Source: Campylobacterales bacterium
GTDB taxonomy: Bacteria; Campylobacterota; Campylobacteria; Campylobacterales; QNZT01
NCBI GenBank assembly: GCA_016744895.1
Contig: JADGDK010000016.1
Coordinates: 1-36,396, forward strand
DNA length: 36,396 nucleotides
Direction: 5' to 3'
Positions 11,571 to 29,999 of the stretch are shown one piece after another. The notes under the pieces are model-generated. The model searched no databases and was not told the origin of the DNA. It saw only the letters and a list, made by a program, of their open reading frames with translations. Position 1 is the first letter of the stretch; each line of letters starts with the position of its first letter. A program made the position numbers and the translations under genes.

Positions 11571-13088
11571 ATGCAACATTTAACTATCAAAAACCTATAT
11601 TATCAATACCCAAACGCAGCAATACCAATCTTTGAAGATCTTAACTTGGAGTTTGAAACAGGATGGAGTTGTATCGTCGGAGCCAACGGTTCTGGGAAAA
11701 GTACACTCTTAAAACTCATCGCAAAAGAGATCAAAAATGAAAATATGATGATCAAAGACAATGACTGTACCTACTACTGTACACAAAGTACGGAACAATC
11801 ACCAAAAGATTTCGAAGATTTTATCTATACCTTTAATAGCAAAGCGTTTAAAATAAGAGATCTTTTGGGTATCAAAGATGATTGGTTAGGTCAATGGCAT
11901 AATCTTTCTCATGGTGAGCGAAAAAGAGTCCAACTTGCAATTGCGCTCTTTAAAAATCCTGATATTTTACTAGTAGATGAACCTACAAATCATTTAGATA
12001 ATAAAAGTCAAAAAATTGTAACGCATGCCCTTAAAAGTTTTAAAGGTATTGGTATATTAGTCAGTCATGATAGAGTACTTTTAGATACATTGTCTCAAGC
12101 CACAATGATGATTACAAATCAAACTGTTGTCAGTTTTAAAACTTCATATACAAATGCGATGATTGCCTATGAAAAAGATATAGCCTTTTTAAAAAAAATA
12201 AAGCAAAAGCAAAATAACCAACTACAAAAACTAGAAAAATCCATACAATCTCAAAGAGAAAAAGTGAGTCAATCTAAGAAAAGACTCTCAAAAAAAAGTA
12301 TTGGTAAAAATGATAGTGACCGTAAAAATAAGATCAACTTAGCCAAGTTAACTGGTAAGGATAAAAATGACGGAAGAATCATCACAAAACTGCAATCACA
12401 ACAGAAGCAACTATTGTCACAGAGTATCAAAGTGGATAAGACCTATACATTGGGAATCACTTTTAACGCAGAAAATGCTAGTAATATTTTTCCAATCACG
12501 GTAGAAAAAGGAGCCTTGGTTCTCTCAGAAACAAAAAAGCTATCCTACCCAAAACTAACCATAGATCAATACGACAAAATCGGAATTACTGGAGATAATG
12601 GCTCAGGGAAAAGTAGTTTTTTAGCAAATGTAATTGCTATGGTAGAGTGCAAAAATGACTATTTATATATCCCTCAAGAGATTAGTAATCAACAAAATAA
12701 GAGACTATTTGATGAGATCAATTGTTTACCAAATGCCCTCAAAGGTGAGATCTATACAATTATCAGAAAACTAGCCTCAGATCCTAAAAAACTGCAAGCT
12801 AGTATGCTACCAAGTCCAGGTGAAATAAGAAAACTAATGATAGCTTATGGACTTTTGCAAAACCCCTCGTTGATTATCCTTGATGAACCAACTAATCATA
12901 TGGATTTAGACTCTATCATGGCATTGGAGTTTGCTTTAAAAGCGTATGATGGCACAATAATCTTGATTAGTCATGATCAAATGTTTTTAGAGAAACTGGT
13001 AACTGAGATCTGGGAGTTTACAAAGATAAGTGAAGGTGCTTATCAACTTATCGAAAACCCTCATAAAAATGGTACAATTAAAAAGTAA
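11571..13088 (+). CDS. ABC-F family ATPase (two tandem ABC domains, no TMD); candidate ribosome-protection ARE protein
   Basis: Walker A GANGSGKST and GDNGSGKSS, Walker B ILLVDEPTNHLD and LIILDEPTNHMD, signatures LSHGE and SPGE, Lys/Gln-rich interdomain linker; adjacent to the OXA gene. Confidence 0.75.
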   Translation: MQHLTIKNLYYQYPNAAIPIFEDLNLEFETGWSCIVGANGSGKSTLLKLIAKEIKNENMMIKDNDCTYYCTQSTEQSPKDFEDFIYTFNSKAFKIRDLLGIKDDWLGQWHNLSHGERKRVQLAIALFKNPDILLVDEPTNHLDNKSQKIVTHALKSFKGIGILVSHDRVLLDTLSQATMMITNQTVVSFKTSYTNAMIAYEKDIAFLKKIKQKQNNQLQKLEKSIQSQREKVSQSKKRLSKKSIGKNDSDRKNKINLAKLTGKDKNDGRIITKLQSQQKQLLSQSIKVDKTYTLGITFNAENASNIFPITVEKGALVLSETKKLSYPKLTIDQYDKIGITGDNGSGKSSFLANVIAMVECKNDYLYIPQEISNQQNKRLFDEINCLPNALKGEIYTIIRKLASDPKKLQASMLPSPGEIRKLMIAYGLLQNPSLIILDEPTNHMDLDSIMALEFALKAYDGTIILISHDQMFLEKLVTEIWEFTKISEGAYQLIENPHKNGTIKK

Positions 13089-13105
13089 AAAAGAAGAGGA
13101 AAACA

Positions 13106-13492
13106 ATGAAATTAAATACACATTTAAAAATAGATCATATATTAAACGGTGAAGTAATTCAACTGAAAGAGGGATATGCAAAGATTGCTCTAAAAACAAC
13201 AGATGTGATGGTAGCTGATGAGCAGGGACTTGTTCACGGTGGTTTTTGTTTTGGTGCCGCAGACTTTGCAGCGATGGCAGCAGTCAATGATCCATTTGTC
13301 GTACTGGCAAAGAGTGAAGTGAAGTTTTTAGCACCTGTAAAAGTGGATGAAGAGATCATTTTTGAAGGACAAGTAACTGAGAGTGATGGACGGAAGTTTA
13401 CAGTATCAGTCAATGGAAGTGTTAAAGACAAAGCAGTCTTTACAGGTACGTTTTATACAGCAGTATTAAAACAACATGTATTGAGTTTATGA
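13106..13492 (+). CDS. hotdog-fold (PaaI-like) thioesterase
   Basis: GLVHGGFCFGAADFAAMAAVN core typical of the PaaI/4HBT hotdog fold; 128 aa. Confidence 0.6.
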   Translation: MKLNTHLKIDHILNGEVIQLKEGYAKIALKTTDVMVADEQGLVHGGFCFGAADFAAMAAVNDPFVVLAKSEVKFLAPVKVDEEIIFEGQVTESDGRKFTVSVNGSVKDKAVFTGTFYTAVLKQHVLSL

Positions 13493-14391
13493 GACAAAAT
13501 AGACTCAATATCGCTGTTATCGGTGCAGGAGGGGTTGGTGGATATGTTGCCGCTAGATTGATCAATGCAGATTTGGCAAATGTAACACTCTTTGCTAGAG
13601 GAAAACATTTAGAAGCGATTCAAAAAGAGGGATTAAAAGTTACTGATGTTGAGCATACTTTTGTTGTCAAACCACAGATTTCCCCTCAAAAAGGTCACTA
13701 TTTTGATGTAGTATTTGTTGCAACAAAAAGTTATGATTTTGCTTCTGCTTGTGAAGAGATCAAAGCATTTATCAATGATAAAAGTATCATTATCCCACTA
13801 TCAAACGGTGTAGATCATAAGCATGTGCTTAGCCAATACTTGGCTAATGGTGTTGTATGTGATGGGTGCGTCTATGTCATCTCACATATCAAAGAGTCTG
13901 GTGTAATTTTTAAAAAATCACCGCTTTTTTATCTGCTATTTGGCAATTCTAAACAGACTGAAAAGATGGTTATACTTGAAACAGTATTGAACAAAAGTGG
14001 ATTAAAGTCAAAACTTAGTGATCATATAGTGTATGATTGTTGGAAGAAGTATCTTTTTATATCCTCTTTTGCAACGATAACCTCTTATCTTGATCTATCT
14101 ATGGATATGGTAATTACAGAGCATAGGGATTTAGTGATGCAAGTGTTAGAGGAGATCAAAGATGTTGCCAATTCTTTAGCAATTCCTATCGATGAAGAGG
14201 ATATTGCTAAGGTAGTCAAACAAGCTGAGAATGTACCAAAAGGTTCAAAAACTTCAATGCAGCTTGACTTTGAATCTGGTAAAAAAACTGAACTGGAATC
14301 TTTGACGGGGTATATTGTCAAAGAGGGAAAAAGGTTAGGTACTAAAACCCCTTTGATGCAGAAGATATATACGGTATTGTTAAAACTATAG
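13489..14391 (+). CDS. ketopantoate reductase (ApbA/PanE) family oxidoreductase
   Basis: N-terminal Rossmann motif IAVIGAGGVGGY and size/architecture of 2-dehydropantoate 2-reductases. Confidence 0.6.
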   Translation: MRQNRLNIAVIGAGGVGGYVAARLINADLANVTLFARGKHLEAIQKEGLKVTDVEHTFVVKPQISPQKGHYFDVVFVATKSYDFASACEEIKAFINDKSIIIPLSNGVDHKHVLSQYLANGVVCDGCVYVISHIKESGVIFKKSPLFYLLFGNSKQTEKMVILETVLNKSGLKSKLSDHIVYDCWKKYLFISSFATITSYLDLSMDMVITEHRDLVMQVLEEIKDVANSLAIPIDEEDIAKVVKQAENVPKGSKTSMQLDFESGKKTELESLTGYIVKEGKRLGTKTPLMQKIYTVLLKL

Positions 14392-14460
14392 GCGATAAAA
14401 AAGATAGAATTGACTATATATTTTTTAAGTATTTTGATTTATTGTAAAGAGATGTAAACT

Positions 14461-14661
14461 GTGAATATTAAAAAATTAAAAGATATGGAAGCGTACTTTT
14501 TTGAGACTTATCCAGAAGGATTTGAGGATGCGTATTTTTTACCAATTTTTAAAAGACATAATATTTCAAAGCTCACTGTTATGGTACAAGAGAGTTTTTC
14601 AAAAGAGAAGTTTGCTCAACCTGAACAAATTATGGAAGATATGATCAAAATCATTAGTTAA
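14461..14661 (+). CDS. small hypothetical protein (66 aa)
   Basis: ORF only; no recognisable motif; GTG/ATG start ambiguity. Confidence 0.3.
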   Translation: MNIKKLKDMEAYFFETYPEGFEDAYFLPIFKRHNISKLTVMVQESFSKEKFAQPEQIMEDMIKIIS

Positions 14662-14678
14662 ATTTATAAAGGAAGTTT

Positions 14679-15275
14679 ATGTATTCACCAGAAATATTTA
14701 AGATTACAGATGAAGCACGTATAGAGGATTTTCTCCAAGCGTATCCTTTTGCGACACTTGTGACTGAAGAAGAAGGTAGGATTGAAGTGACACACTTACC
14801 AATCAACCGACTCAGTGATGGCAAGTTTTACGGACATCTGGCAAAAGCCAATATCCATGCAAATATCGAGCAAAATAAAGAGATCTGTCTGATTTTTCAA
14901 GGTCCTCATGCATATATCTCTCCACGTTTTTATGCGAGTGCCTTTCAAGTACCCACATGGAACTATAGTGCAGTACATCTTTATGGAAAGATAGCCTATA
15001 TCGATGATACGCAAAAAGCCTGGTCTTTAATCACTGAGATCACAGCATACTATGAGGGCGAAAAGGGTTGGAAGTTACCTAGTGAGTTTAGATATCAGGA
15101 GTTAATGGAGCACTTTAGGGTTTTTGAAGTTGACGTGACTAAGATACAGGCAAAGTTTAAAATCAATCAAAATAAGAGTCAAGATGATCAAAAAAGTGTG
15201 ATCAAAAGTCTCAACGCAATTAACGAAAAAAAGATGGCGGAGTTTATGCAGATGATGGGAAGTCAAGATGTATGA
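14679..15275 (+). CDS. PaiB-family FMN-binding putative transcriptional regulator
   Basis: Characteristic N-terminus MYSPEIFKITDEARIEDFLQAYPFATLV and ~200-aa length. Confidence 0.7.
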   Translation: MYSPEIFKITDEARIEDFLQAYPFATLVTEEEGRIEVTHLPINRLSDGKFYGHLAKANIHANIEQNKEICLIFQGPHAYISPRFYASAFQVPTWNYSAVHLYGKIAYIDDTQKAWSLITEITAYYEGEKGWKLPSEFRYQELMEHFRVFEVDVTKIQAKFKINQNKSQDDQKSVIKSLNAINEKKMAEFMQMMGSQDV

Positions 15276-15303
15276 TATGACTTATATCATACATCTTAAA
15301 TAA

Positions 15304-16638
15304 TTAATACCGACTAGTATTGTCTTTGACATTGATAAGTACCTCTATGTGTTCGACCACTTCTACTAACTCTTTTTGAAGAGACATGACTTCAAAGATA
15401 TCTTTATAGGCAAATGGTGACTCATCGATAGTATTTTTATCTATGGTGCCTACTTTGCCATGCATTGAGGTTTTAAATGCTTCGAGAGTGATCTCTTTTT
15501 TTGCTTTTGATCGACTCATCACCCGTCCAGCACCATGTGAAGAGGAGTTGAGGGATGTTTTACATCCTTTTCCTCTTACGATAAAAGAGCCATCTCTCAT
15601 GTTCGCTGGAATCACACCCATCATGTCCTCCTCAGCATGGGTGGCACCTTTTCTATGTATCCACTCTGCTCTTGTCTCATCAAACTCTGCATGATTGTGA
15701 TTTTTGTTGATAAACCTGCTCTCATCATCAAATACTTTTTTATCTCGTATGTCTATGGATTCATTTAAAATATCAACAATTACTTCGATCATCTTTTTAC
15801 GATTTTCACGTGCAAAGAAAAGTGCAAAGTTTTGATCAGTGATATAGTCGCGTCCAAGCGCACTCTCTACATCTAAACCCCAAATACCCTCTAAGCTATC
15901 AAGGTTGACCTTTTTGTTGAGTTCAAGCTGTTTTTTATGCCTGAATTTTTCAAAAGCCTTGACATATGTCTTTGGATTATCAATTTTGAGTTTTTGGTTT
16001 CTTTGTGCAAACTCCTCTAGATGTTTGTCGATGTTGTTAAGTTTTGGATTTTTCTCTAAGTAGGCTTGGTACATATAGTGCGAAGCGATCTTATGTCCAA
16101 AACCACGACTCCCTGAGTGTATCACAATCCATACCCTATCACTACTGTCATACCCAAGCTCGATAAAATGATTTCCACCACCAAGAGTTCCTAACTGCAT
16201 CAATCCTACAGCGTTTAAAACTGTTTTTGTAAACGCTGTAAGTGGAAGATCAAGCTTTAACGACTGGTGGTTTTTGTGCTTTTTAAAGCCAAGCGGTATC
16301 GTGCTACTGATCTTTTGGTGAATAGACTCAGCTTTGGCTTTGACCTCTTCTTTGGTAAATGCTGTTTGATACGCACACATCCCACACCCGATATCAAATC
16401 CCACAAACTGTGGTACGATGACTCCTTTTGTAGCACATACTCCACCGATAGGCATACTATAGCCTGCATGTGCATCGGGCATCAATGCCCCATAAGTCAC
16501 ATAAGGTTTGCTAAGTACCGCTTCAAACTGATCTTGTGTCGTATCATCTAAAAGATCAGCATAGATCTTATAGGGTGTGTTTGTCTTATCAAATCTCTCA
16601 TGTTCTATCTCTTTAAATCCTAATGTCTTTAAATCCAT
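15304..16638 (-). CDS. rtcB: RtcB-family RNA ligase (long paralogue)
   Basis: RtcB metal/GMP-binding motifs: DIGCGM, GGGNHFIE, HSGSRGFG, SSSHGAGR; 444 aa. Confidence 0.85.
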   Translation of the reverse strand: MDLKTLGFKEIEHERFDKTNTPYKIYADLLDDTTQDQFEAVLSKPYVTYGALMPDAHAGYSMPIGGVCATKGVIVPQFVGFDIGCGMCAYQTAFTKEEVKAKAESIHQKISSTIPLGFKKHKNHQSLKLDLPLTAFTKTVLNAVGLMQLGTLGGGNHFIELGYDSSDRVWIVIHSGSRGFGHKIASHYMYQAYLEKNPKLNNIDKHLEEFAQRNQKLKIDNPKTYVKAFEKFRHKKQLELNKKVNLDSLEGIWGLDVESALGRDYITDQNFALFFARENRKKMIEVIVDILNESIDIRDKKVFDDESRFINKNHNHAEFDETRAEWIHRKGATHAEEDMMGVIPANMRDGSFIVRGKGCKTSLNSSSHGAGRVMSRSKAKKEITLEAFKTSMHGKVGTIDKNTIDESPFAYKDIFEVMSLQKELVEVVEHIEVLINVKDNTSRY

Positions 16639-16703
16639 TCTCTACTCCTTTATATTTTCTTGGTGTCAGTATAAAATAGAATATGGACATATCTTGTCCA
16701 TTT

Positions 16704-17306
16704 TTATTTATTTTTTAGCACTTTAAACTTTTCACCATAAAAGGTTTTAATAGGATCTCCTCGTTTGATCATTTTTACACTGTGCCATCGCTTTTGGATC
16801 TGTGCTTCGATTATCTCTATCTGTTGTAACTTATGCTTTTCCTCTAAGCGTCTACGTGCAATCTGTCTGTTTTGGTGTTGTGACCGTTGATCAAAACTAA
16901 CAGCACTGATACCTAGTGGTGGGTAGAGTGCACGTATCCCACTGTTGGTAGTGTTGACATGTTGTCCTCCTTTTTTGGGACTTTTCATGCTATGGTATAT
17001 GATGCGTGTATCATCAAAGTCAATAGGTTCAAACCCCTCATAACATATGAGTTCAAAGTACCAGTTTTTACGTTTATGTAAGGGACGAAATGGACTTTGA
17101 CTTTGCCAAATCAGCGTACCTTGGAGGTTTTGTAAGGCTTTGTCATGACTGTCTAAAAGTATAGAGTTATAACAGTTTGGTTGTATACCCTTTTCGATCT
17201 TGATTACACAAAAACCATATCTTTTCTCTATCCATTGGTAAAAATACCATATCCCTCTACTTACTTCATCAACTACATTTGCACTACTAATATAAATAAG
17301 CATCAA
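16704..17306 (-). CDS. prfH: peptide chain release factor H (PrfH), GGQ-domain protein
   Basis: GGQHVNTTNSGIR GGQ motif in a ~200-aa protein immediately downstream of, and abutting, an rtcB gene. Confidence 0.8.
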   Translation of the reverse strand: MMLIYISSANVVDEVSRGIWYFYQWIEKRYGFCVIKIEKGIQPNCYNSILLDSHDKALQNLQGTLIWQSQSPFRPLHKRKNWYFELICYEGFEPIDFDDTRIIYHSMKSPKKGGQHVNTTNSGIRALYPPLGISAVSFDQRSQHQNRQIARRRLEEKHKLQQIEIIEAQIQKRWHSVKMIKRGDPIKTFYGEKFKVLKNK

Positions 17307-18347
17307 TTACTCCTTGTAGGTGAGGATCGGTCGAAAAGTTGCTACCACCTCTACTAACTTTGCTTCAATGAGATCACTGATGACAATATCAATATCTTTA
17401 TAGGCTTGTGGGGCTTCTTGGTAGAGAAGACTACTATCATGACAGATGACACGTGCACCGATGGCTGTGCGTAAAAGCTGTTGTTTGTTGACAAGTTTTT
17501 TAAGCTTTGCTTCTACACTGTTTCGCTCCCACTTCCGTCCAGCACCATGTGCTAGTGAGTAGTTTGCTTGTGCAGTGTCAGCCAAAGGTTTGACAAGATA
17601 GCTGAGTGTTCCACGACTACCGGCGATCACTACTAATCCTTTATCTGTGGGCGTGGCTCCTTTTCTATGTAGCCAGAGATTATCTATTTGTGTAATGCTG
17701 TTGTGTCCAGTGTTGCTGACACATGTTAACGAACCCACTAAATTCAATGCTTTGAGTACTCTTTTGACAATCTCTTCCCTACTCTTTTTAGCAAAGTTTT
17801 GTGCTTTATCATGATCGCTCATGTAGGCTTTGGCTAAAGGACTTTTTGCATCAATCCCTTCATTACTTTTATAAGAGGTTGCAACTTTATCAAACACCAT
17901 CTGCCCGAAACTTCTTGAACCACTGTGTACTAAGATATAGAGCATATCTTTATCCATATCACCACTGTTTAACTGATGCAATTCAACAAAGTGGTTGCCC
18001 CTGCCTATCGTGCCTAAGTTATGTTCACGTAGAGGTGTATCTATTTCTACGTCACTGAGACTGTTTAGTTTTAAAAGCTTCTTTTCAAATCGATCTATTT
18101 TGATCTTTTTGGATTTTACAGGGAGTGCAAAAAGACTCATCCCACATCCTATATCACCTCCAATGAGATGAGGATAGATCACGTCTTTGCTCATCACTGC
18201 CATCCCGTTTGGTACAAAACCGACACTCAAGTCTGGTAGTCCTACAACGTTTTGTACACCTCTATAGGTGGTGATCTTTTTTAATGTCTCAACACTTCGC
18301 TGGTCAATCCAGTTTCTCTTTGAAGCGATGATCTTTAGATTGTTCAT
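17307..18347 (-). CDS. rtcB2: RtcB2-type RNA ligase (short paralogue, prfH-linked)
   Basis: DIGCGM, GNHFVE, HSGSRSFG, AHGAGR motifs; 346 aa; stop abuts the prfH start. Confidence 0.85.
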   Translation of the reverse strand: MNNLKIIASKRNWIDQRSVETLKKITTYRGVQNVVGLPDLSVGFVPNGMAVMSKDVIYPHLIGGDIGCGMSLFALPVKSKKIKIDRFEKKLLKLNSLSDVEIDTPLREHNLGTIGRGNHFVELHQLNSGDMDKDMLYILVHSGSRSFGQMVFDKVATSYKSNEGIDAKSPLAKAYMSDHDKAQNFAKKSREEIVKRVLKALNLVGSLTCVSNTGHNSITQIDNLWLHRKGATPTDKGLVVIAGSRGTLSYLVKPLADTAQANYSLAHGAGRKWERNSVEAKLKKLVNKQQLLRTAIGARVICHDSSLLYQEAPQAYKDIDIVISDLIEAKLVEVVATFRPILTYKE

Positions 18348-18500
18348 AAATTCTCCATAATCTATTTTTGTTTTGTTTGTAACCGCTGTTTAATGTTCTA
18401 TTTTGTATCTCTAAAGTCATAAATTCTCCTTTATTATATTTGAAAATATGGTACAATAATTTAGTGACGTATTTTGTCCAGTAAAAAATAGAAGGTGATT

Positions 18501-19415
18501 ATGAGCCAAAAATCAAGCCTATATCGAACCATCGAAATCCTTAAAATGCTCAATAGCGGTAAAAAGTTATGTGTCTCAAATCTTGCGATGGTTTATGAAG
18601 TGAGTAATAGAACGATTAGACGCGATTTTGAGCTTATTCGCGAGAGTTTTGGTGACTTTATGCGTAAAGATGGTGAGTGTTATAAAGCTTATAAAAAGGT
18701 GCTTTTGGAAGATCTTTTGATGGGGTCGGACTTGATGACACTAGCCAATATCATCAATCTTTTTGGACAGGCTTCGATGGAAGAGAGTATCGATGAGCAA
18801 ACCAAAGATCTTGTGAAAAAATCTCTACGTGTCTATGACTTTAAGACCCGACCTTTTGAACATGTAGAAAATAGAGAGATTGTCAAAAAGCTTGAATATG
18901 CGATCAAGTTTAACAAAGAGATTCGCATTGAATATCAGATATCACGTGGAAGTACAAAGAGGTGGTTTCAGCCTTATAAGATACTCTTTATCAATGAAAA
19001 CTTTTATCTTGCGGGTGAAAATATCTCAAAAAAGAATTTTGAGTTTTTGCGAACTGCACTCATCTTAGATATCGAAGAGAGTAAGAAAACATTTTATCAA
19101 AAGACTGATATGATCGACTTTATCCAAACAATCCAAACCCCTTGGGCCTCTTTTGGTAAAGAGGAGATCACTGTAAGACTTAGGATGGATAGTAAGATAC
19201 GAAAGTACTTTTTTATGAAAAAATACCTGCCAAGTCAAAAGGTGATTCAAACTTTTGAAGATGGAGATATCGAGGTAGAGTATGTGGTGAGTAACCTCAG
19301 AGAGGTCGAAGAATTGGTGATCAAATGGCTTCCACATATCAAGATCATTGCACCTAAAAATCTAAAGCGAATGATTAAGAAGGTGATAGGAAAGAAGTTG
19401 GCGGGGTTGAGGTAA
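18501..19415 (+). CDS. HTH + WYL-domain transcriptional regulator
   Basis: N-terminal HTH (LYRTIEILKMLN..VSNLAMVYEVSNRTIRRDFELI); WYL-like domain IRIEYQISRGSTKRWFQPYKILFINENFYLAG; start set at the ATG after a GAAGGTG RBS. Confidence 0.65.
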   Translation: MSQKSSLYRTIEILKMLNSGKKLCVSNLAMVYEVSNRTIRRDFELIRESFGDFMRKDGECYKAYKKVLLEDLLMGSDLMTLANIINLFGQASMEESIDEQTKDLVKKSLRVYDFKTRPFEHVENREIVKKLEYAIKFNKEIRIEYQISRGSTKRWFQPYKILFINENFYLAGENISKKNFEFLRTALILDIEESKKTFYQKTDMIDFIQTIQTPWASFGKEEITVRLRMDSKIRKYFFMKKYLPSQKVIQTFEDGDIEVEYVVSNLREVEELVIKWLPHIKIIAPKNLKRMIKKVIGKKLAGLR

Positions 19416-19420
19416 ATACT

Positions 19421-19756
19421 ATGCATACAAAACAAAATCTACTCTTTATCTGTAGTCGAAACAAATGGCGCAGTCCCACAGCAGAGACCATCTATAAAAA
19501 AGAGCAGAGCTTTAACGTCCGATCTGCTGGTACAAGTCCCAAAGCAAGAAGAACTGTCAATCATAAAGATATCCACTGGGCAGATATCATCTTTGTGATG
19601 GAAAAAAAACATAAAAGCAGACTCAAAACACAATTTTTAGAGATGTTAAACGGTAAAAAGATATATGTTTTAGATATTCCTGATGATTATCTCTATATGG
19701 ATGAATCGTTAATCTATGAGTTAGAGAGCAAGGTGGATATGCATCTTGATGTCTAA
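19421..19756 (+). CDS. small LMW-PTP-like phosphatase (CX5R P-loop)
   Basis: LFICSRNKWRSPTAE matches the LMW protein-tyrosine-phosphatase/ArsC P-loop C-X5-R-S; 111 aa; DIPDDY near the C-terminus as a possible general-acid region. Confidence 0.55.
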   Translation: MHTKQNLLFICSRNKWRSPTAETIYKKEQSFNVRSAGTSPKARRTVNHKDIHWADIIFVMEKKHKSRLKTQFLEMLNGKKIYVLDIPDDYLYMDESLIYELESKVDMHLDV

Positions 19757-20393
19757 AGAAGCATTACAACAACGTTGGTATCAACTTTTTGCCACACATG
19801 ATCATGTGAAGCTAGAGAATACATTTGATCAGTTATGTACACAATACTCCCAAACGCATCGATACTACCATACACTACAACATGTCACGTCTCTGCTCTC
19901 ACATCTCCAAACAGTCGAACACCTGATCAACGATCACTTTTGTGTTGAGACGGCAATCTGGTTTCATGACATGGTCTATGATCCAAAACGAGATGACAAT
20001 GAAGCACGGAGTGCACAAAGTGCTGTTAGATTTCTAAAGGCTATCGATATTCCCAAAGAGATGATAGAAAAAGTAAAACACCTTATCCTTTTAACCAAGC
20101 ATCCATCCACTCCACAAACAAAAGATGAAAAGTATCTCATCGATATGGATCTCTCTATCTTAGGTGTAGATACCTCTTATTATGCTCAGTATGAAAAGTG
20201 GATCAGAAAAGAGTATCAACATGTGAGTGATATAGACTATAAAAAAGGACGAAAAAAAGTGTTAGACTCTTTTCTAAGTATGGCTCAAATCTACCAAACA
20301 GAGTACTTTTATGAAAGGTTAGAGGGGAAAGCTAGGGAGAATGTTTCTAACGCGATGATTTCTTTATGCTTAGATATTTCAAGTGTTAGTTAG
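19749..20393 (+). CDS. HD-superfamily metal-dependent phosphohydrolase-like protein
   Basis: YYHTLQHV ... WFHDMVYDP pattern (H..H ... HD) typical of HD-domain proteins; start overlaps the stop of the preceding phosphatase gene. Confidence 0.5.
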   Translation: MSKEALQQRWYQLFATHDHVKLENTFDQLCTQYSQTHRYYHTLQHVTSLLSHLQTVEHLINDHFCVETAIWFHDMVYDPKRDDNEARSAQSAVRFLKAIDIPKEMIEKVKHLILLTKHPSTPQTKDEKYLIDMDLSILGVDTSYYAQYEKWIRKEYQHVSDIDYKKGRKKVLDSFLSMAQIYQTEYFYERLEGKARENVSNAMISLCLDISSVS

Positions 20394-20495
20394 TAGCTTG
20401 TTTTTGTTGTAGGTATTGATATAATGTTTGTTGAATAAGTAGTTATATTGTAGAAATTAAACCTTTAGATTTCCATAGAATACCTTAAGTTGACT

Positions 20496-20536
20496 AACTA
20501 TTATTTTTTTAGTTATAATAGTTAAAAATAATAGTT
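20496..20536. promoter_or_regulatory. 13-bp inverted repeat flanking a TATAAT box (candidate operator/promoter of the Fic islet)
   Basis: AACTATTATTTTT-N15-AAAAATAATAGTT with TATAAT in the spacer, 12 nt upstream of the small ORF start. Confidence 0.4.
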
Positions 20537-20547
20537 AGGACTTAAAT

Positions 20548-20802
20548 ATGGCAAAAACCTTTTTTCCAAATGGCAAACAAACAGTATATGTAGATGCTAG
20601 TGATCCACATCCTAAAAACACCCAATATAAAATTTCAATTGGATTAGAATATTGGGGTGAATCAAATCATGAAGTTGTCAAGATACAAATGGTTTACAAT
20701 GGAAAAATTTCTGGGAGGAAAAGCCCTTCTTATCCGATAGATACAGATGATTTTCAGAGAGTGATGACTAAGGTCAATGAACTCATTTCAAATAGAAACT
20801 AG
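20548..20802 (+). CDS. small hypothetical protein (84 aa) upstream of fic
   Basis: ORF whose stop lies 11 nt before the Fic gene start; very AT-rich; no recognisable motif. Confidence 0.4.
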   Translation: MAKTFFPNGKQTVYVDASDPHPKNTQYKISIGLEYWGESNHEVVKIQMVYNGKISGRKSPSYPIDTDDFQRVMTKVNELISNRN

Positions 20803-20813
20803 TAGGAGTTAAC

Positions 20814-22085
20814 ATGACTAAAAAAATCTATCCAACTTCATCTAAAGAATGGATGAAGTATTTAACTGTTGATAAATACTATACTCCAAGAGAAATTGAA
20901 TATAGAAAAAAACTCATTATAGAAAGTGGTTGTGATTATGATGAAGTTTATAAAAAAATACTCAAATATAGAAATAATAAAAAAGAATTAATCAACTTAG
21001 AAGGCGAAAGCTTTACATTTGTTGAAACTCATCTTATGAAAGAAAATGTTGATAGAATCAAGAATTTTTGGAGAAGTAGTTCTTACTCTTTTAAAGAAAG
21101 TTATAAAAAAGAATTGATTTTTGACACCTTGCTTTCTGAAGCATTTCATTCATCATCAATTGAGGGTGCTCATAGTACAAAAAAAAGAACAGAAGAGATC
21201 ATTAAAAAACAATTAACACCTGAAGACAAATCAGAAAGAATGATTATTAATAATTATAGAGCTTTACAATATATTTTTGACCATCAAGAACAAAAACTAG
21301 ATGATGAATTTGTTTTATCTCTACATAAAATGATATCAGAAGATACTCTTGATGAAAAAGAAGATGAAGGAGTTTATAGGAATGATGGTGTTGAAATAAC
21401 TACAGCTACACAAAAAGTTGTTTTTCGACCAACTTCTGATATTAATAAGATGAAAAATATGCTTGATAAGCTTTATTCATTTACTAATTCAGATAATGAT
21501 GATTGTGAAATAGAATATATTGAATCCATATATAAAGTTATCGCATTTCATTTTTTATATGGATATATACATCCTCATTTTGATGGGAATGGAAGAACAT
21601 TAAGAGTTTTATTTACTCACTTACTTGGTCAAAATGGTTTCGATATGTTTTATTATATATCTTTATCTGAAATCATTCACTTAAGTGAGAAGAGAAAAAA
21701 AGAATATGAAAAAGCATTCATCGATGTAGAAGAGAATGAACTAGATTTGACTTATTTTATCTACTATATTCAAGATATTATGATTGATGCATTACAGGTA
21801 CTAGATGATAGAGTATTTCTCTATTTTAGAGAAAGTATTGTATTTGATAAAGTTGAGGAACAGGCTGTTAAATTAACTAAGCGTCAAGAAAATATTCTGA
21901 AATTAATTGCAAGAAATAAAAGAGCATTTGCTATGACTTCTAAAGAAATTTCTGGAAGATTTAAACTATCATCTCAAACAATTTTAAAAGATATAAGATT
22001 TTTAATTGACTTTAAATTATTAAGAAAAAAACAAACAGGTTTAAAAATTTATTACGAATTAGATATTAATGTTACAAAAAGCTAA
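20814..22085 (+). CDS. fic: Fic/Doc family protein, class II (internal inhibitory motif), C-terminal wHTH
   Basis: Fic motif HPHFDGNGRTLR; upstream inhibitory-helix motif SSSIEG ([ST]xxxE[GN]) in the same polypeptide; C-terminal HTH-like region. Confidence 0.85.
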   Translation: MTKKIYPTSSKEWMKYLTVDKYYTPREIEYRKKLIIESGCDYDEVYKKILKYRNNKKELINLEGESFTFVETHLMKENVDRIKNFWRSSSYSFKESYKKELIFDTLLSEAFHSSSIEGAHSTKKRTEEIIKKQLTPEDKSERMIINNYRALQYIFDHQEQKLDDEFVLSLHKMISEDTLDEKEDEGVYRNDGVEITTATQKVVFRPTSDINKMKNMLDKLYSFTNSDNDDCEIEYIESIYKVIAFHFLYGYIHPHFDGNGRTLRVLFTHLLGQNGFDMFYYISLSEIIHLSEKRKKEYEKAFIDVEENELDLTYFIYYIQDIMIDALQVLDDRVFLYFRESIVFDKVEEQAVKLTKRQENILKLIARNKRAFAMTSKEISGRFKLSSQTILKDIRFLIDFKLLRKKQTGLKIYYELDINVTKS

Positions 22086-22301
22086 AAATATAACAAAACT
22101 ACAATAAATTGAAAATAGAAATTCAACCTTATTCCAAAGATGACGAGGTTGATATTCGAAAAATCAAAATTTAACAAAAAACATATTCCACAACGGACAA
22201 AATACGTCCACTAACTACCCTATACTACCACTGTGCAAAGGCAGTTTTGATACTGCCTGCTTGCATACTTACGCTGTGAGTGATGTATGAGACTTGCACA
22301 A

Positions 22302-22357
22302 GTCAACTGTGAATTGACCCAAATTTTAAATTCGTGGGTTCGAATCCCACCATACTG
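22302..22357 (+). pseudogene. tRNA-His-like remnant (anticodon arm with GTG plus canonical T-arm), not an intact tRNA
   Basis: GTCAA-CTGTGAA-TTGAC anticodon stem-loop (anticodon GTG) and TCGTGGGTTCGAATCCCAC T-arm. A 15-nt AT-rich insertion replaces the variable loop and no complementary 5' acceptor or D-arm is present. Confidence 0.4.
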
Positions 22358-22578
22358 AAAGGTATGTAGCTAAGCGGTAAAGCATAACAAAAGCCCAAGA
22401 GAGCTTATCTCTTTCAAAACAAACGCACCAAAAAACCAGAGCGATGATCTTGTATATCGTGTTAGAAAAAGTATAAAAAGTTGCAACTTCGAGTGTTTAG
22501 AAGTGTGTAAACTGGAGATACTTTGGAAACACATTATCCATCATGCTCCGTTTACGGTGCATCTATAAAGGAGTAGAA

Positions 22579-23685
22579 ATGTTGATAGGAACAGTCAAAG
22601 AAAGTGAAAAAGCGTTACTTTATAAAAATGAAAAGTTAGTTAAAGTATTAGAGAGTGGTAGGTATGTGTTTCCAAACTTTACAGGTGCCTATAGATATGA
22701 AGTGTTTAGTGTAGAGCATTTTGGGATTGATACAAAAAAGAGTGAGTTACTTTATAAAAAGTACCCTGAGTTGATCAAAAAACATTTTGAGGTAGTCGCA
22801 CTTGGTGAAGAGGAGCGTGCTTTTATCTGGATCGATGGAAAGTTTGCTGAGCTTTTAAAAGCTGGAGCGACAAAGCTCTATTTTAAAGAGTATGATGTGA
22901 AAATGGAAAAAGTCAATGTCAAAGAAGAGATGCGTGTTTCCACTAAGTATGTCAAACTTTTGGAGGGGAGTTGGGAGCATATTTTGAGAGTCAATATCAG
23001 TGCACATGAGTGGGCATATCTCTATATTGACAATGTCTTGGATAAAAGGCTTGAGGTAGGTATGCATCTTTTTTATACAGACTTTTTTGATATCAAGTCC
23101 TCTAAGCTTGACAAGCGTGTCAAAGAGATGGAGATCACAGGTCAAGAGTTACTCAGTGCCGATAAAGTCACCCTGAGATGTAATGTGACAATGCACTATA
23201 AGATCAGTGATGCGGTACGTTATATGGAGACTGCTTTTGCCCCACATGAATATCTTTACAAACACATGCAATTTGCAATCAGAGAGCATATCGGTACAAA
23301 AACGGTGGATGAAATATTAGAGCATAAAAACAGCTTGAGTGAGGAGATTTTGGAGCGATTTTTAGTACATTGTGAAAAGATCGGTGTAACAATAGAGTCG
23401 ATGCATATCAAAGATATTATCCTGCCTGGTGAGATGAGAGAGATCTTTAACCATGTCATCGAAGCGAGTAAACGTGCAGAGGCAAATCTCATCAAAAGAC
23501 GAGAGGAGACAGCCGCAACAAGATCATTGTTAAACACAGCCAAGTTGATGAAAGACAACCCTACTTTGGCAAGGCTCAAAGAGCTTGAAGCGTTGGAAAA
23601 GATCACCCAAAGCGTAGAGACGCTCAATGTCTATGGTGGACTTGATGGGGTGATGCATAATCTTGTAGATCTTCGTGAAAAATAA
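22579..23685 (+). CDS. SPFH/band-7 (stomatin/prohibitin-like) domain protein
   Basis: SPFH-type core and coiled-coil C-terminus (GEMREIFNHVIEASKRAEANLIKRREETAATRSLLNTAKL); start set at the ATG after an AAGGAG RBS. Confidence 0.7.
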   Translation: MLIGTVKESEKALLYKNEKLVKVLESGRYVFPNFTGAYRYEVFSVEHFGIDTKKSELLYKKYPELIKKHFEVVALGEEERAFIWIDGKFAELLKAGATKLYFKEYDVKMEKVNVKEEMRVSTKYVKLLEGSWEHILRVNISAHEWAYLYIDNVLDKRLEVGMHLFYTDFFDIKSSKLDKRVKEMEITGQELLSADKVTLRCNVTMHYKISDAVRYMETAFAPHEYLYKHMQFAIREHIGTKTVDEILEHKNSLSEEILERFLVHCEKIGVTIESMHIKDIILPGEMREIFNHVIEASKRAEANLIKRREETAATRSLLNTAKLMKDNPTLARLKELEALEKITQSVETLNVYGGLDGVMHNLVDLREK

Positions 23686-23707
23686 GAAAAAAGGTTTGGG
23701 TATAAAT

Positions 23708-24394
23708 CTACTGTGTGATGATTTTATACCCTATACCGCTAACATTGGTGATGATGTCACTCCCCAATGTTTTTTTGAGTCTAAAGATAAGTGTACGAAT
23801 ACTACTTGTCTCTCTGTTTTTTCCATACACATGAGTCGTTAAATCATCAAGTGAAACGGTGCTATTTTTATGCTCTACTAAATATGCGAGTAGTTTGAGT
23901 GTTTGACGTCCGAGATTTACCTCTTTATCTTGATAGTAAAGTCTATTTTGGGTGGTATCAAATGTATAGCTATCTTGTAATGAAATCATCTCTTTTTTAC
24001 TTGTTTGGGTTTGCATAGGCTTAGTATATCCGAGGGCGAGTTGTAACGCTGCTTGAATCTGCTTCTCTTTATAGGGTTTGATAAGATAGTTTACTGCACC
24101 TGCATCAAGTGCATACGCAATCATCTCATCATCAGAATACGCTGTTAAAAAGATGATCTTAGTTTCGATGCTATTTGAGATTTGTAGGGCAGCCTCTGCT
24201 CCGCTGATATGGTCTTTGAGCATGATATCCATAAAGATAACATCAGGCTTGAGTTTGATCGATTCCGAAATTGCTTTTTCACCCGTGTCACAGATACCTA
24301 CTACTTCAAAGCCAGCTTGTAAAAGTACTTTTTTAAGAAACTCAGCAGGGATACGTTCATCTTCGACGATCAAGATCTTTGCATTGCTATTCAT
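23708..24394 (-). CDS. two-component response regulator (receiver + OmpR-type winged helix)
   Basis: Receiver motifs ILIVEDE, DVIFMDIMLKD, ...LTA; C-terminal OmpR-like wHTH. Confidence 0.85.
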   Translation of the reverse strand: MNSNAKILIVEDERIPAEFLKKVLLQAGFEVVGICDTGEKAISESIKLKPDVIFMDIMLKDHISGAEAALQISNSIETKIIFLTAYSDDEMIAYALDAGAVNYLIKPYKEKQIQAALQLALGYTKPMQTQTSKKEMISLQDSYTFDTTQNRLYYQDKEVNLGRQTLKLLAYLVEHKNSTVSLDDLTTHVYGKNRETSSIRTLIFRLKKTLGSDIITNVSGIGYKIITQ

Positions 24395-25263
24395 CGTGGA
24401 ACCTCTATCTTATAGACAAGACCGTTATCCGTAGATAAGGTTATGATACCATCCATCTGTTCTACCATCATGTTAATCAAGTCTGTACCTAGACTTTGCT
24501 CTTGTTCTAGGTTTTTAGGATTGACTTTTTCAGTAGAACTATCTTCATAGTGATAGAGATAAGCTGTATCTGTTTGGGTAAAGGTGATTTTTATCTCATT
24601 ATCAGTGTTGGTTAATGCATATTTGATTGAGTTGATGATCAGTTCATTGGTGATGATACCAAACTTTAACATCTGCTCAAATGGCAGGACTATGTGATCA
24701 CTTTGGATAGTAATCCTCGCATCGCTATCGTACATCTCAAAGATAGTAGAAGAGAGCTTATCCATGTAGTCGTAAAAATCGATCTTTTCAAAGTCATTGT
24801 GTTTGTAAAGGATCTCATGAACGATTGCTATCGTATCGATTCGGAGTCTATTGGCGATGATCAAACGTTTGGTTTCAGGGTTTTTCTCATCCAACTGTTG
24901 AAGTCCAAGCAGTGAGGAAATAATGTTTAAATTGTTTTTAACACGGTGGTGAATCTCTTTGAGTAAGAGCTCTTTTTGTCTGTTGGAGTCGGTTAGTTGG
25001 CGATAGGAATTTTCTACCGCTAGATGATAGACCACACCAAAAAGTATCACGATAAGCGATGCCATAATGATCGCAGCAAGAATAGCTTTGTCATGTAAAA
25101 GCGTATTGTCTGGGTAGTGATGATAACCGTAAGTGTATATACCAAGCACCACTGATTGATGTATCATCGTGATAATCAGCGAGTGTTTGAGTGAAAAGAG
25201 TAGAAAATACCCCAACGGCACGATGATATGAAAAACTGAGATATTAAAACCATTTGAAATCAA
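24391..25263 (-). CDS. sensor histidine kinase, HisKA_2-type phosphoacceptor
   Basis: EIHHRVKNNLNIISSLLGLQ H-box typical of HisKA_2 kinases; N-terminal TM helices; TTG start overlaps the upstream ORF stop and the response-regulator start. Confidence 0.7.
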   Translation of the reverse strand: MISNGFNISVFHIIVPLGYFLLFSLKHSLIITMIHQSVVLGIYTYGYHHYPDNTLLHDKAILAAIIMASLIVILFGVVYHLAVENSYRQLTDSNRQKELLLKEIHHRVKNNLNIISSLLGLQQLDEKNPETKRLIIANRLRIDTIAIVHEILYKHNDFEKIDFYDYMDKLSSTIFEMYDSDARITIQSDHIVLPFEQMLKFGIITNELIINSIKYALTNTDNEIKITFTQTDTAYLYHYEDSSTEKVNPKNLEQEQSLGTDLINMMVEQMDGIITLSTDNGLVYKIEVPR

Positions 25264-25556
25264 TAGCGCATAAGTACGATAGTGTAAATAGCTACAGTGG
25301 TATTTTTCGTAGTAAGGTAATATGAAAGACTCAAAAGTGTCACGATAATAAAAAAGAGCTCGATATAAGCATCCGTATAGTTTTGAATCTGGTAGTCGAT
25401 AACAGCCGCAAGTGTCATGACAAAGAGGTAACTTCCAAAAAACCCATGTAAAAAGATCTCTCTTTTATCACTACCATACATAAACTGTTTGAAGAAATCA
25501 ATCATTATCATAAAAATATTATACATAAAACTTAATTTTAATACGCAATGAAACAT
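25260..25556 (-). CDS. small polytopic membrane ORF immediately upstream of the kinase (possible detached/frameshifted sensor N-terminus)
   Basis: 98-aa hydrophobic product; its stop overlaps the kinase TTG start (ATTGA). Confidence 0.4.
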   Translation of the reverse strand: MFHCVLKLSFMYNIFMIMIDFFKQFMYGSDKREIFLHGFFGSYLFVMTLAAVIDYQIQNYTDAYIELFFIIVTLLSLSYYLTTKNTTVAIYTIVLMRY

Positions 25557-25609
25557 TCAGGGAACAATCACATGTGATAATGCAAAGCAAAATATTTAAA
25601 GGAGTGATC

Positions 25610-27202
25610 ATGAATAAAAAGGGCTTGATATATATAACTACTACTGCAATATTGCTTGGATTTTTGGGAGGATGTGGAGGAAGCTCCTCTCCTAAAGTCG
25701 TAACCCCTGAGACACCAGAGGTAAACTACAAAAGGTATATGCTCTATACACAAACAGATCCAGCAGACACAGAGTCAAATCTCTATGTATATGATCCTGA
25801 AACCAATGCAACTGCTTTAACAGACAGACTCAAAGATACCAATATGCGAAAAACCAGTGCTATGGTACCGATCTTGGATGCAAGCGGTGAAAATGTAACA
25901 GATATGGTGAGAAAGTACCATATCTATACCAACCATTCACACAAGCTCTATAAGATCCATCTACAGGCATCTGAGCTAGCCTTGGTGACACCTATGCGTA
26001 TCTCGTCCCAACAAGATGAAGAGATCAATGCGCTTGAACTTTTCTTGGATGGTGCTGATATCAACAAGAGTTGGATCAGTTATATAGAGACAGATACGCG
26101 AAAACTCAAAGCAGTACAGTTAGGCTATGGTGATGCTGACGTACCAAAAACACTACCTGATGACTTTGATCCACTTATAGCGATACATGATGCACAAAGT
26201 GGTGCGATCAAAGGGATGTTTTTTGAAGATGACTATAGTTTTGATACCTCAAGACTACAACAGTGTGATACAAATCTGGAAAATTGTAGTGTAAAACTCG
26301 ATGGTTTTCGCAAAATCGAAACGCTATATCTACCCTCTAAAGGTATCCTCTTTTATAGTGAAAATCAAGGCACTGGTGATGTCAGTATCCATCTTTATCA
26401 GTCTGAAACAGATAGCTTAGAACTGTTACAGACGATACTGGCAGAAGATCTAGGGAAAACAACACTAGAGAAGATGACCTATAAAAACGGCGCACTCTTT
26501 TTGGTGTTTGAAAATAACATTGTTGCTGTGGGCGTGACACCCTATATCTCAATCTACCGTTATAATTTTGCTACCAAAGCTTTGATAAGTGCCAAAGTCA
26601 ATAATCCAGAAAAAAATCTTTTTCAAATGAGAGTGAGTGATGATAAAGTACTGTTAAACGTTCAAAATGAAGGAAAAACATTTGCGGATAATGACTTTAT
26701 CATAATGAAATCACTCAACCAATCTGACCTCACCGATGAAAAGATAGTCACTATGATAAGTGCTTCAAGTATCGTGACAACTTCGGGAGACTGGATCTAT
26801 CACTTTGGTATGACAAGCACTACTACCAACCTTGGCTTTTTACATGATGATGGAAGTGGAGAAACAATCATGAGTGATCTACATCTAGTAGGAGGAAAAT
26901 ATACGACACTTTTTCATAGAGATGCTTTTGCCAGTGATCCGTCGATGGATACGCTTTACTATGTGACTCATGAGGACAAGAAATTTTATGCTATGCAAGC
27001 ATCAGACCCTACACAGGTAGTCTCTTTTGGTGAAGTACCTGATTTTTCAATATTTCAAGGGTTTGGTATGGGTAGATATAGCCTCTATGAGCTTATGAAT
27101 GCTAGCAATATAGGTCATATCTATCTGATGGATACCCAAGCTGCAAATAAACTGGTACGTATCACAAACACCGAGGGGGTAGTGCATCGTTTGTGGCAGT
27201 AA
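25610..27202 (+). CDS. lipoprotein, function unknown
   Basis: Lipobox LLGFLGGC after an N-terminal hydrophobic region; AAAGGAG RBS before the ATG at 25610; ~530 aa. Confidence 0.7.
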   Translation: MNKKGLIYITTTAILLGFLGGCGGSSSPKVVTPETPEVNYKRYMLYTQTDPADTESNLYVYDPETNATALTDRLKDTNMRKTSAMVPILDASGENVTDMVRKYHIYTNHSHKLYKIHLQASELALVTPMRISSQQDEEINALELFLDGADINKSWISYIETDTRKLKAVQLGYGDADVPKTLPDDFDPLIAIHDAQSGAIKGMFFEDDYSFDTSRLQQCDTNLENCSVKLDGFRKIETLYLPSKGILFYSENQGTGDVSIHLYQSETDSLELLQTILAEDLGKTTLEKMTYKNGALFLVFENNIVAVGVTPYISIYRYNFATKALISAKVNNPEKNLFQMRVSDDKVLLNVQNEGKTFADNDFIIMKSLNQSDLTDEKIVTMISASSIVTTSGDWIYHFGMTSTTTNLGFLHDDGSGETIMSDLHLVGGKYTTLFHRDAFASDPSMDTLYYVTHEDKKFYAMQASDPTQVVSFGEVPDFSIFQGFGMGRYSLYELMNASNIGHIYLMDTQAANKLVRITNTEGVVHRLWQ

Positions 27203-27275
27203 GATAGTGTACATTTATAAGTCTAAGTTGTAATTATCGCTATAATATGATGATTATACTAAAACGAGGGCTAAC

Positions 27276-28013: not shown

Positions 28014-28205
28014 AGTAGATATTAATATAATGTTTATTGCATAAAGATATATAATCACAAGTATTAAAAAGAATGAATTATAACAATAAATTCAAACTCT
28101 TTACTTCATCACTATACTTTTTAAAAAAAAATCACCCAAAATAATGGAAACAAAGAAAAAGTTATTATTTGATAATATACAGAGAATTACTAAAGGAACT
28201 ATACT

Positions 28206-29910: not shown

Positions 29911-29999
29911 TTGTTGATATTAAAAAATACTATATAGTGAGTAATAAATCTTTATTGAAGATAACATTATTTCTAAATAATAGAGTGTAACTTACCTAT

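Follow-up and report, generated by a model that had tools for sequence, protein, structure and literature searches.

A WYL-domain regulator as the probable switch of a proposed RNA-repair regulon in Campylobacterota, with a cysteine phosphatase as companion and an HD-domain protein as passenger

Contig JADGDK010000016.1 of a Campylobacterales bacterium (assembly GCA_016744895.1; positions 1 to 36,396 of the forward strand, hereafter the window) carries an operon specifying the RNA ligase RtcB2 and the release-factor homologue PrfH and, divergent from it, three genes that encode a helix-turn-helix (HTH)-WYL-WCX regulator, a small cysteine phosphatase and an HD-superfamily protein. Comparative genomics, on which all conclusions of this work rest, points to an inducible RNA-repair regulon of Campylobacterota in which the WYL protein would act as the switch, the phosphatase would be a companion and the HD protein a passenger, a reading that we consider probable. 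A dimer of the HTH-WYL-WCX protein would bind the palindrome TGGACA-N5-TGTCCA at the -35 position of three promoters. The units thereby controlled would be rtcB2-prfH (via a short leader open reading frame, ORF), a second rtcB gene specifying 444 aa, and a Y-RNA-like RNA together with a Band7/SPFH gene, while the WYL-phosphatase-HD operon would probably be governed by one of the same sites (site 1) as well. Gene content, synteny statistics, the enrichment and positions of the motif, RNA covariation, protein folds and catalytic residues were computed directly; DNA binding by the WYL protein, its ligand, the direction of control and the substrates of both enzymes are inferred. The elements concerned are as follows (coordinates in the window, strand in brackets).

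rtcB2, 17307-18347 (minus): 346 aa, RtcB of the PrfH-associated type; Pfam RtcB 182 bits, TIGR03073 'release_rtcB' 343 bits (cutoff 272)
prfH, 16704-17306 (minus): release-factor homologue with intact GGQ (KKGGQHVN); RF-1 55.6 bits, TIGR03072 127 bits, below the cutoff of 167
second rtcB, 15304-16638 (minus): long type, 444 aa; Pfam RtcB 280 bits
WYL gene, ORF from GTG 18495 to 19415, likely start ATG 18501 (plus): HTH-WYL-WCX regulator
phosphatase gene, 19421-19756 (plus): 111 aa, compact cysteine phosphatase with the fold of low-molecular-weight protein tyrosine phosphatases (LMW-PTPs), COG4551-type; LMWPc 35.5 bits (cutoff 23.2)
HD gene, 19749-20393 (plus): 214 aa; the ORF opens at TTG 19746, the database start is ATG 19749
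leader ORF, 18304-18420 (minus): 38 codons, with its own AAGGAG ribosome-binding site, ending 44 nt inside rtcB2
site 1, 18464-18481 (minus): candidate operator/promoter CTGGACAAAATACGTCAC, facing rtcB2-prfH
site 3, 16684-16700 (minus): candidate operator/promoter, perfect palindrome TGGACAAGATATGTCCA, before the 444-aa rtcB
site 2, 22194-22210 (plus): candidate operator/promoter CGGACAAAATACGTCCA (GGAC-N7-GTCC), before the Y-RNA-like RNA and Band7
Y-RNA-like (YrlA-like) RNA, 22233-22565, ends approximate (plus): contains a tRNA-like module; leader of Band7 or co-transcribed with it
Band7/SPFH gene, 22579-23685 (plus): 368 aa from ATG 22579, the ORF opening at 22543; Band_7 79.8 bits
84-aa ORF (orf84) and Fic-HTH gene, 20548-22085 (plus): Fic scores 109 bits with the PADLOC SoFic model

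An earlier, sequence-only reading of this DNA had described the WYL, phosphatase and overlapping HD genes as divergent from the rtcB2 operon, and all of them are there. The WYL gene lies 147-153 nt from rtcB2 on the opposite strand (the distance depending on the start codon), 5 nt separate it from the phosphatase gene, and the latter overlaps the HD gene by 8 nt. The genes rtcB2 and prfH, the second bearing GGQ, are adjacent and in the same orientation and thus constitute an RtcB2-PrfH module, although the prfH product falls below the TIGR03072 cutoff. No domains of the regulator RtcR (CARF, sigma-54 AAA+, HTH) were found in the annotated ORFs of the window, which agrees with the absence of RtcR stated previously; the RTC domain of RtcA was likewise found in none of these ORFs, and the window annotation contained no Ro/Rsr (TROVE) partner for the Y-like RNA. 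The Pfam annotation extended to the ORFs within 12373-30393 and, in the remainder of the window, to most of the larger ones; every ORF of at least 400 aa was explained. A weak DUF805b RNA match inside rtcB2 was taken as chance. The gene set had been drawn too narrowly in the earlier reading, which overlooked the 444-aa rtcB's own site, the unit of Y-like RNA and Band7, and the leader ORF. The nearest relative, an 'Epsilonproteobacteria' metagenome-assembled genome (MAG) whose proteins are ~90% identical, served as sister genome; it lacks the 444-aa rtcB.

The candidate operator emerged from the aligned regions upstream of rtcB2 in 10 loci as the consensus GGACAAAATAYGTCA-N7-TATTGTACCAT, which is conserved in ~40 loci. 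The palindrome TGGACA-N5-TGTCCA matched the window three times where 0.10 matches were expected, a count attained in none of 100 shuffles. Exact matches to the 14-nt core were present in 43 of 84 WYL loci and in none of ~80 control loci from other phyla; when up to two mismatches were allowed, 91 sites were found in 539 kb of WYL loci versus 12 in 1,365 kb of controls. In all three window sites the palindrome occupies the -35 position, and the sites keep a fixed spacing to -10-like boxes and to start codons. Site 1 has a -10-like TATTGT at 18453-18458 and is located ~20 nt upstream of the start codon of the WYL gene, which makes autoregulation of WYL likely and would probably place the WYL-phosphatase-HD operon under the same site. 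Site 3 is followed by TATACT, and 47 nt separate it from the 444-aa rtcB start downstream; GGACA(A/T)AATACGAC recurs at ~47-50 nt before this type of rtcB in those related loci that have the upstream region on the contig. At site 2, the palindrome is followed by TATACT at 22221-22226. A dimeric HTH protein would fit a palindrome, and no regulator gene other than WYL accompanies the motif; from this we infer that the WYL protein binds it. The overlap, at 18452-18458, of the TATTGT of the rtcB2 promoter (minus strand) with a plus-strand TACAAT box, a possible element of the WYL promoter, was also observed; with the two boxes overlapping, the divergent rtcB2 and WYL promoters may compete for the same DNA. 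In addition, a conserved hairpin (CCGTAGGTGTGACCATGTCACAC) was seen in the leaders of several operator-controlled transcripts, downstream of the rtcB-facing operator (loci L115, L120, L122, L125, L126, L140 and L147).

All three domains of the WYL protein scored above their Pfam cutoffs (HTH_DeoR 28.7 bits, cutoff 21; WYL 27.6, cutoff 21.8; WCX 29.9, cutoff 23.9), and the start was placed at ATG 18501 because homologues begin with MSQKSS. Orthologues 54-71% identical are plentiful in Campylobacterota. A metagenome scan with the single WYL protein returned no relatives, and one with an alignment as the query returned 80 loci. Synteny was assessed in 26 loci with at least 3 kb of upstream sequence (for rtcB and the phosphatase) and in 56 with at least 1 kb downstream (for HD and Band7). 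An rtcB gene on the opposite strand faced the WYL gene in 15 of the 26, and the phosphatase was part of the WYL operon in 12, always on the WYL strand. The usual order is phosphatase followed by WYL; the reverse is peculiar to the window and to the sister genome, where prfH-rtcB2 stands opposite WYL-phosphatase. The minimal arrangement, prfH-rtcB2, motif and phosphatase-WYL, was seen in four loci (L100, L110, L130 and L134). In Halarcobacter, prfH-rtcB2 is opposite a series made up of a 176-aa protein gene, the phosphatase gene, a 173-aa protein gene and the WYL gene; in Sulfurovum, a 445-aa rtcB takes the place opposite WYL, and orthologues of the 444-aa rtcB (60-70% identity) are opposite WYL genes in other loci. 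Band7 was found downstream of WYL in 10 of the 56 loci, every time behind the same motif and RNA. Proteins of 176 and 173 aa (L168, 6609-7139 and 7483-8004) and of 250 aa (L119, 3317-4069), none with a Pfam match, recur in the WYL- and rtcB-associated operons of Campylobacterota.

This synteny with rtcB across Campylobacterota, together with a palindrome linking three transcription units, supports the regulatory role proposed for the WYL gene in the earlier reading, and the local switch of the RNA-repair system would most likely be the WYL protein. That its WYL domain senses a product of RNA damage, and thereby switches the regulon on, is plausible by analogy only, because other WYL regulators sense nucleic acids and the CARF domain of RtcR binds tRNA fragments ending in cyclic phosphate; either repression or activation would be possible. 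That CARF and WYL transcription factors may detect cyclic-phosphate RNAs and control RNA repair has been put forward, as a general statement, by Aravind and co-workers (PMC9503650).

The region of ~330 nt between site 2 and Band7 is conserved in 14 loci. ARAGORN reported in it a tRNA-like element ('tRNA-His') at 22274-22358, and the Rfam YrlA model (RF02553) matched 22326-22389 with 31.8 bits (E = 9e-4; gathering score 69). The Rfam tRNA model gave 23.4 bits in the window, under its gathering score of 29; at the equivalent position in seven related loci it gave 29-36 bits, at or above that score, and five of these seven also had YrlA matches of 28-46 bits. Folding of a 12-sequence alignment produced 72 pairs, 46 of which show compensatory changes, with repeated T-arm-like hairpins. 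Given its place behind the motif, this Y-RNA-like RNA would belong to the regulon. At the other end of the system, a short N/K/Q-rich ORF comparable to the leader ORF of the window precedes and overlaps rtcB2 in all 10 of the rtcB2 loci inspected. It might, speculatively, couple rtcB2 translation to the performance of ribosomes and so act as a translational sensor. In some loci, similar short N/K/Q-rich ORFs precede a gene for 250 aa instead.

A different role for the WYL protein, that of a defence-island regulator of the BrxR/CapW kind controlling the neighbouring SoFic-like Fic gene and not RNA repair, is suggested by PADLOC, whose WYL models gave 66 and 54 bits with the window protein and whose SoFic model matched Fic, the two genes being 1.4 kb apart. 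The orf84-Fic pair, however, has a strong sigma-70-like promoter of its own (20490-20519, 11 of 12 positions) that lacks the palindrome; the palindromes instead precede the rtcB, rtcB2 and Band7 units. In the sister genome orf84 and Fic are missing, an unrelated 205-aa ORF being found in their place, and they are also missing from all related loci. We therefore rejected WYL as the regulator of Fic, Fic being lineage-specific, equipped with its own promoter and without the operator, and regard the defence reading as scarcely credible. The position of orf84-Fic, with the WYL operon on one side and the Y-like RNA on the other, looks like a slot for variable cargo.

The phosphatase has the P-loop C11-S-R-N-K-W-R17-S18, a CX5R-S motif. 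C11, R17, S18 and D88 were invariant in 38 sequences, as was a KHK motif. A structure model (predicted local distance difference test, pLDDT, 90) has the LMW-PTP fold, and Foldseek comparison with TT1001, YwlE and Wzb gave E values of 8e-7 to 1e-4 and template-modelling (TM) scores of ~0.7-0.78. The protein is ~40 residues shorter than these targets (147-157 residues), and its Pfam match is limited to residues 8-41. The segment missing would come after the SAGT motif and before the next strand, and corresponds to the variable loop, which in LMW-PTPs shapes the phosphotyrosine pocket. As to a named family, the NCBIfam Wzb model returned 21 bits against a cutoff of 243. The family itself is large (2,518 matches) and keeps 60-72% identity across Gammaproteobacteria, Desulfobacterota, Bacteroidota and others.

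Its contexts were surveyed in 80 genome loci, in which 53 immediate same-strand neighbours were compared. The phosphatase gene comes directly after rtcB2-prfH in Endozoicomonas and in two Pseudoalteromonas genomes. The island of Endozoicomonas sp. G2_1 (L030, 2777-12438) comprises genes for a phosphoribosyl pyrophosphate (PRPP)-synthetase-like protein, NAMPT, NADAR, KptA, DUF4291, RtcB2, PrfH, a proteasome-like subunit, the phosphatase, an Rnl ligase and HD-Pnk; one of the Pseudoalteromonas islands (L056) is extended, on the other side, by genes for RlaP, a CCA-adding-type enzyme, RtcA and a further RtcB. KptA adjoins the phosphatase in Grimontia and in a Pseudomonadales MAG, a Kangiellaceae MAG has KptA, NADAR and two Macro genes near it, and KptA was the sole Pfam family to recur among the 53 neighbours. 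The L030 island, a very large one for RNA repair and NAD/ADP-ribose chemistry, has a further rtcB ~7 kb beyond it. A translationally coupled basic protein of ~70 aa is encoded directly upstream of the phosphatase in 15 loci of three phyla (L007, L008, L010, L016, L020, L025, L026, L028, L032, L033, L038, L042, L047, L066 and L079). Its consensus is RNRAWRRFKN...EKNWK.LYLRSEKLARAKQLG..YPR, the one copy checked (L008) had no Pfam match, and just upstream of it there is a conserved nucleotide stretch (LSRLLNP in the extended ORF), possibly a leader or an RNA motif.

Other copies of the phosphatase are found elsewhere: in Pedobacter the order upp, phosphatase, HAD hydrolase forms a lineage-specific synteny (17 loci; the hydrolase is YjjG-like, by eye only), a phage has the gene among those for ThyA, NTP-PPase and Nrd, and the copy of P. 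aeruginosa is beside moaA and a nucleobase transporter gene. With most homologues away from RNA-repair genes, with neighbours this variable, and with an HD protein most like YpgQ-type nucleotide hydrolases, it could be argued that WYL alone belongs to the repair system and that the phosphatase and HD genes are nucleotide-metabolism or housekeeping passengers brought in by chance or operon drift. This we find unlikely: 12 of 26 Campylobacterota loci have the phosphatase in the WYL operon, often as the first gene after the operator; it is directly downstream of rtcB2-prfH in three gammaproteobacterial genomes without WYL; it is associated with KptA in three further lineages; and such modules are too rare for chance adjacency to explain the repetition. 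On this comparative evidence the protein is a cysteine phosphatase whose catalytic apparatus is intact, and its repeated association with RtcB2-PrfH and KptA systems is genuine. The contexts (RNA repair, KptA/ADP-ribose and nucleotide genes) point to a ribose-linked phosphate as the most likely substrate, rather than to protein phosphotyrosine; the enzyme could act on RNA termini, on by-products derived from ADP-ribose or nucleotides, or on the ligand of the regulator. Literature searches on COG4551 and COG4339 yielded nothing useful, and no description of a function for the COG4551-type phosphatase family was found in the searchable literature.

The HD protein gave no match to Pfam HD (PF01966). 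The H...HD...D pattern is nevertheless present: H41, H45, H73, D74, H118, D132 and D134 are invariant in the alignment of its family. The AlphaFold model (pLDDT 97) has an all-helical HD-superfamily fold, the best matches of which in the PDB were YpgQ-type nucleotide pyrophosphohydrolases and class-I cyclic-nucleotide phosphodiesterases (Foldseek probability 1.0, but E values of at least 7e-3); compared with the YpgQ/YedJ/BH2835 type, E was 1.5e-3 by sequence and TM ~0.45-0.5. The protein is one of a large family, stand-alone and ~210 aa long, whose members are labelled 'predicted metal-dependent HD superfamily phosphohydrolase', and sometimes misnamed 'NMDAR2C subunit'; the closest relative of the window protein is just 55% identical.

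The sequence-only reading had put WYL, phosphatase and HD together as an end-healing arm, with both enzymes remodelling RNA termini for ligation by RtcB or RtcB2. Several observations agree with this: the three genes are so closely spaced (gaps of 5 and -8 nt) that they would be co-transcribed, the catalytic residues of both enzymes are intact, the phosphatase recurs in RNA-repair islands, and in L030 an HD-Pnk-type gene (HD plus AAA_33 kinase) adjoins that of an Rnl-type ligase. HD-Pnk-type enzymes do heal RNA ends, and the HD protein of the window was considered as one of them, a candidate that was rejected: the best BLASTP hit to the HD-Pnk-type protein of L030 had E = 1.7, and the window gene has neither an adjacent kinase or ATP-dependent ligase nor a conserved linkage to rtcB. 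A lack of conserved linkage was among the outcomes that, in the terms of that reading itself, would refute it, and for the HD gene this is what was observed: it was present in none of the 56 related WYL loci that extend at least 1 kb downstream; the sister genome has it as a deletion remnant (L006/L086, 10329-10586) that keeps residues 1-47 and 165-210, with a stop between them and the catalytic core gone; and in five other loci with HD homologues no rtcB, phosphatase or WYL gene was nearby, the neighbours being RNase T-like, endonuclease V, two-component system, HxlR and other genes. The nearest structures, YpgQ-type enzymes and cyclic-nucleotide phosphodiesterases, are weak matches. Moreover, RtcB joins 2',3'-cyclic-phosphate or 3'-phosphate ends to 5'-OH ends with no healing first, and a 3'-phosphatase would destroy the 3'-phosphate or 2',3'-cyclic phosphate that RtcB needs. 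An end-healing arm thus seems quite improbable. The HD protein is, judged from its residues and distribution, an intact but dispensable, lineage-specific addition and not a conserved end-healing partner; it drops out of the RNA-repair model. What stands of the proposal that the phosphatase is a repair partner is its recurrence beside rtcB2-prfH and KptA in unrelated lineages; end healing by it found no support.

Some results weigh against the inducible regulon that we favour. The WYL protein is only remotely similar to solved WYL regulators (8tp8, 7tzv and 9cu3 among them; E ~2e-3). About 40% of the assessable loci with WYL orthologues have no rtcB within reach, many of these contigs being short, and the exact motif is missing from about half of the WYL orthologue loci. 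Another factor could recognise the motif, or the motif could be an unusually conserved promoter. The YrlA scores are below the Rfam gathering threshold both in the window and in related loci, and the window has no Ro/Rsr protein to partner a Y-like RNA. Finally, the phosphatase family is broad, and its link to RNA repair is a recurrent but minority pattern, most genomes showing unrelated or nucleotide-metabolism contexts.

A bolder form of the regulon may be put forward tentatively, as a possibility that we would not expect to hold in full. It would be an RNA-damage response of Campylobacterota independent of RtcR, in which WYL senses cleaved RNA and induces two RtcB proteins, PrfH, a Y-like RNA that works without Ro, and Band7; the leader ORF would be a translational sensor of ribosome health, and the compact COG4551-type phosphatase a hitherto unrecognised RNA-repair enzyme of bacteria, its target being a ribose-linked phosphate at RNA ends, in ADP-ribose-1''-phosphate or in the ligand of the WYL protein. 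Such a role for the phosphatase would explain its position after RtcB2-PrfH and KptA in unrelated phyla.

In the searchable literature we found nothing on the control of RtcB in bacteria without RtcR, nor on the regulation of rtcB2-prfH. For both, this family of loci offers a testable answer, namely a specific WYL regulator and a candidate operator of 17 bp that recurs at three promoters. Nor was a regulon of rtcB, rtcB2-prfH and Y-like RNA under WYL control, its operator or the leader ORF found described there, although an older survey of RtcB contexts may have mentioned an association with WYL or LMW-PTP. The highly conserved phosphatase family is nominated here as a recurrent partner of RtcB2-PrfH and KptA, and gives biochemists a concrete candidate enzyme.

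Further downstream, the search of the window for more RNA-repair genes yielded a single candidate, a stand-alone AAA_33 (polynucleotide-kinase-like) gene at 30000-30506 with no clear link to the rtcB regulon. It follows an AAA_15/AAA_21 ATPase gene and a DUF3226 gene, a pairing that looks defence-like, within a segment of low GC content (24%) at 28001-30506.

Compared with known systems, the HD protein resembles the YpgQ/YedJ/BH2835 type in being stand-alone, all-helical and of ~200 aa, and these proteins are its best PDB matches, though weak ones; it differs from them in belonging to a separate family. The phosphatase shares with the LMW protein tyrosine/arginine phosphatases and ArsC (Wzb, YwlE, TT1001) the fold, the N-terminal CX5R(S) P-loop and the Asp of a D-P-Y-type loop (here IPDDY). 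Unlike theirs, the P-loop of its family reads CSRN(Q/K)WRS and identity is 60-70% across phyla; in genomes it is partnered by RtcB2-PrfH, KptA or the 70-aa basic protein, and not by kinase or polysaccharide genes.

The regulator has the same three domains as PafBC, DriD, BrxR and CapW, which we take to form the HTH-WYL-WCX class, and like them would use a palindromic site in its own or a divergent promoter. BrxR and CapW repress, and PafBC activates from the -35 position, its site replacing the -35 element; the sites of the window, also at -35, resemble this last arrangement. What sets the window regulator apart from the class is its target genes, which would be those of RNA repair and not of DNA damage or phage defence.

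RtcB2-PrfH is a described module of ribosome rescue and repair (PMC9304027, PMC9223846, PMC13166195), and RtcB2 needs no healing step before it joins a 2',3'-cyclic-phosphate or 3'-phosphate end to a 5'-OH end (PMC9304027). The earlier statement that the locus is not a described Rtc system therefore needs qualifying: the module was already on record (PMC9304027, PMC9223846), while WYL control, the phosphatase companion and the Y-like RNA were not found in the searchable literature. As far as searches and the keyword-matched passages of one module paper go, no dedicated regulator, phosphatase or leader ORF is mentioned for RtcB2-PrfH. The window module differs from those described in its combination with another rtcB, with a WYL regulator and with a candidate operator common to them, and in having a PrfH below the TIGR03072 cutoff.

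The closest parallel is the control by RtcR of rtcBA and Y RNAs, as described for rsr-yrlBA-rtcBA of Salmonella (PMC7790460; PMC4012209), in which the CARF domain of RtcR binds tRNA fragments ending in cyclic phosphate (PMC7790460). The regulator of the window is HTH-WYL-WCX and not a CARF-AAA+-HTH protein acting via sigma-54, and the promoters look sigma-70-like, with a palindrome at -35; the window lacks RtcA and Ro/Rsr, and has PrfH, Band7 and a cysteine phosphatase. In both cases, nevertheless, a factor that senses a ligand (in the window, a predicted one) is divergent from an operon for an RtcB ligase, as in Salmonella and E. coli. A Y-RNA-like RNA with a tRNA-like domain again appears to be part of the regulated set, despite the unrelated regulator and the absence of Ro, and the logic is likely to be shared as well: a product of RNA damage would induce its repair.

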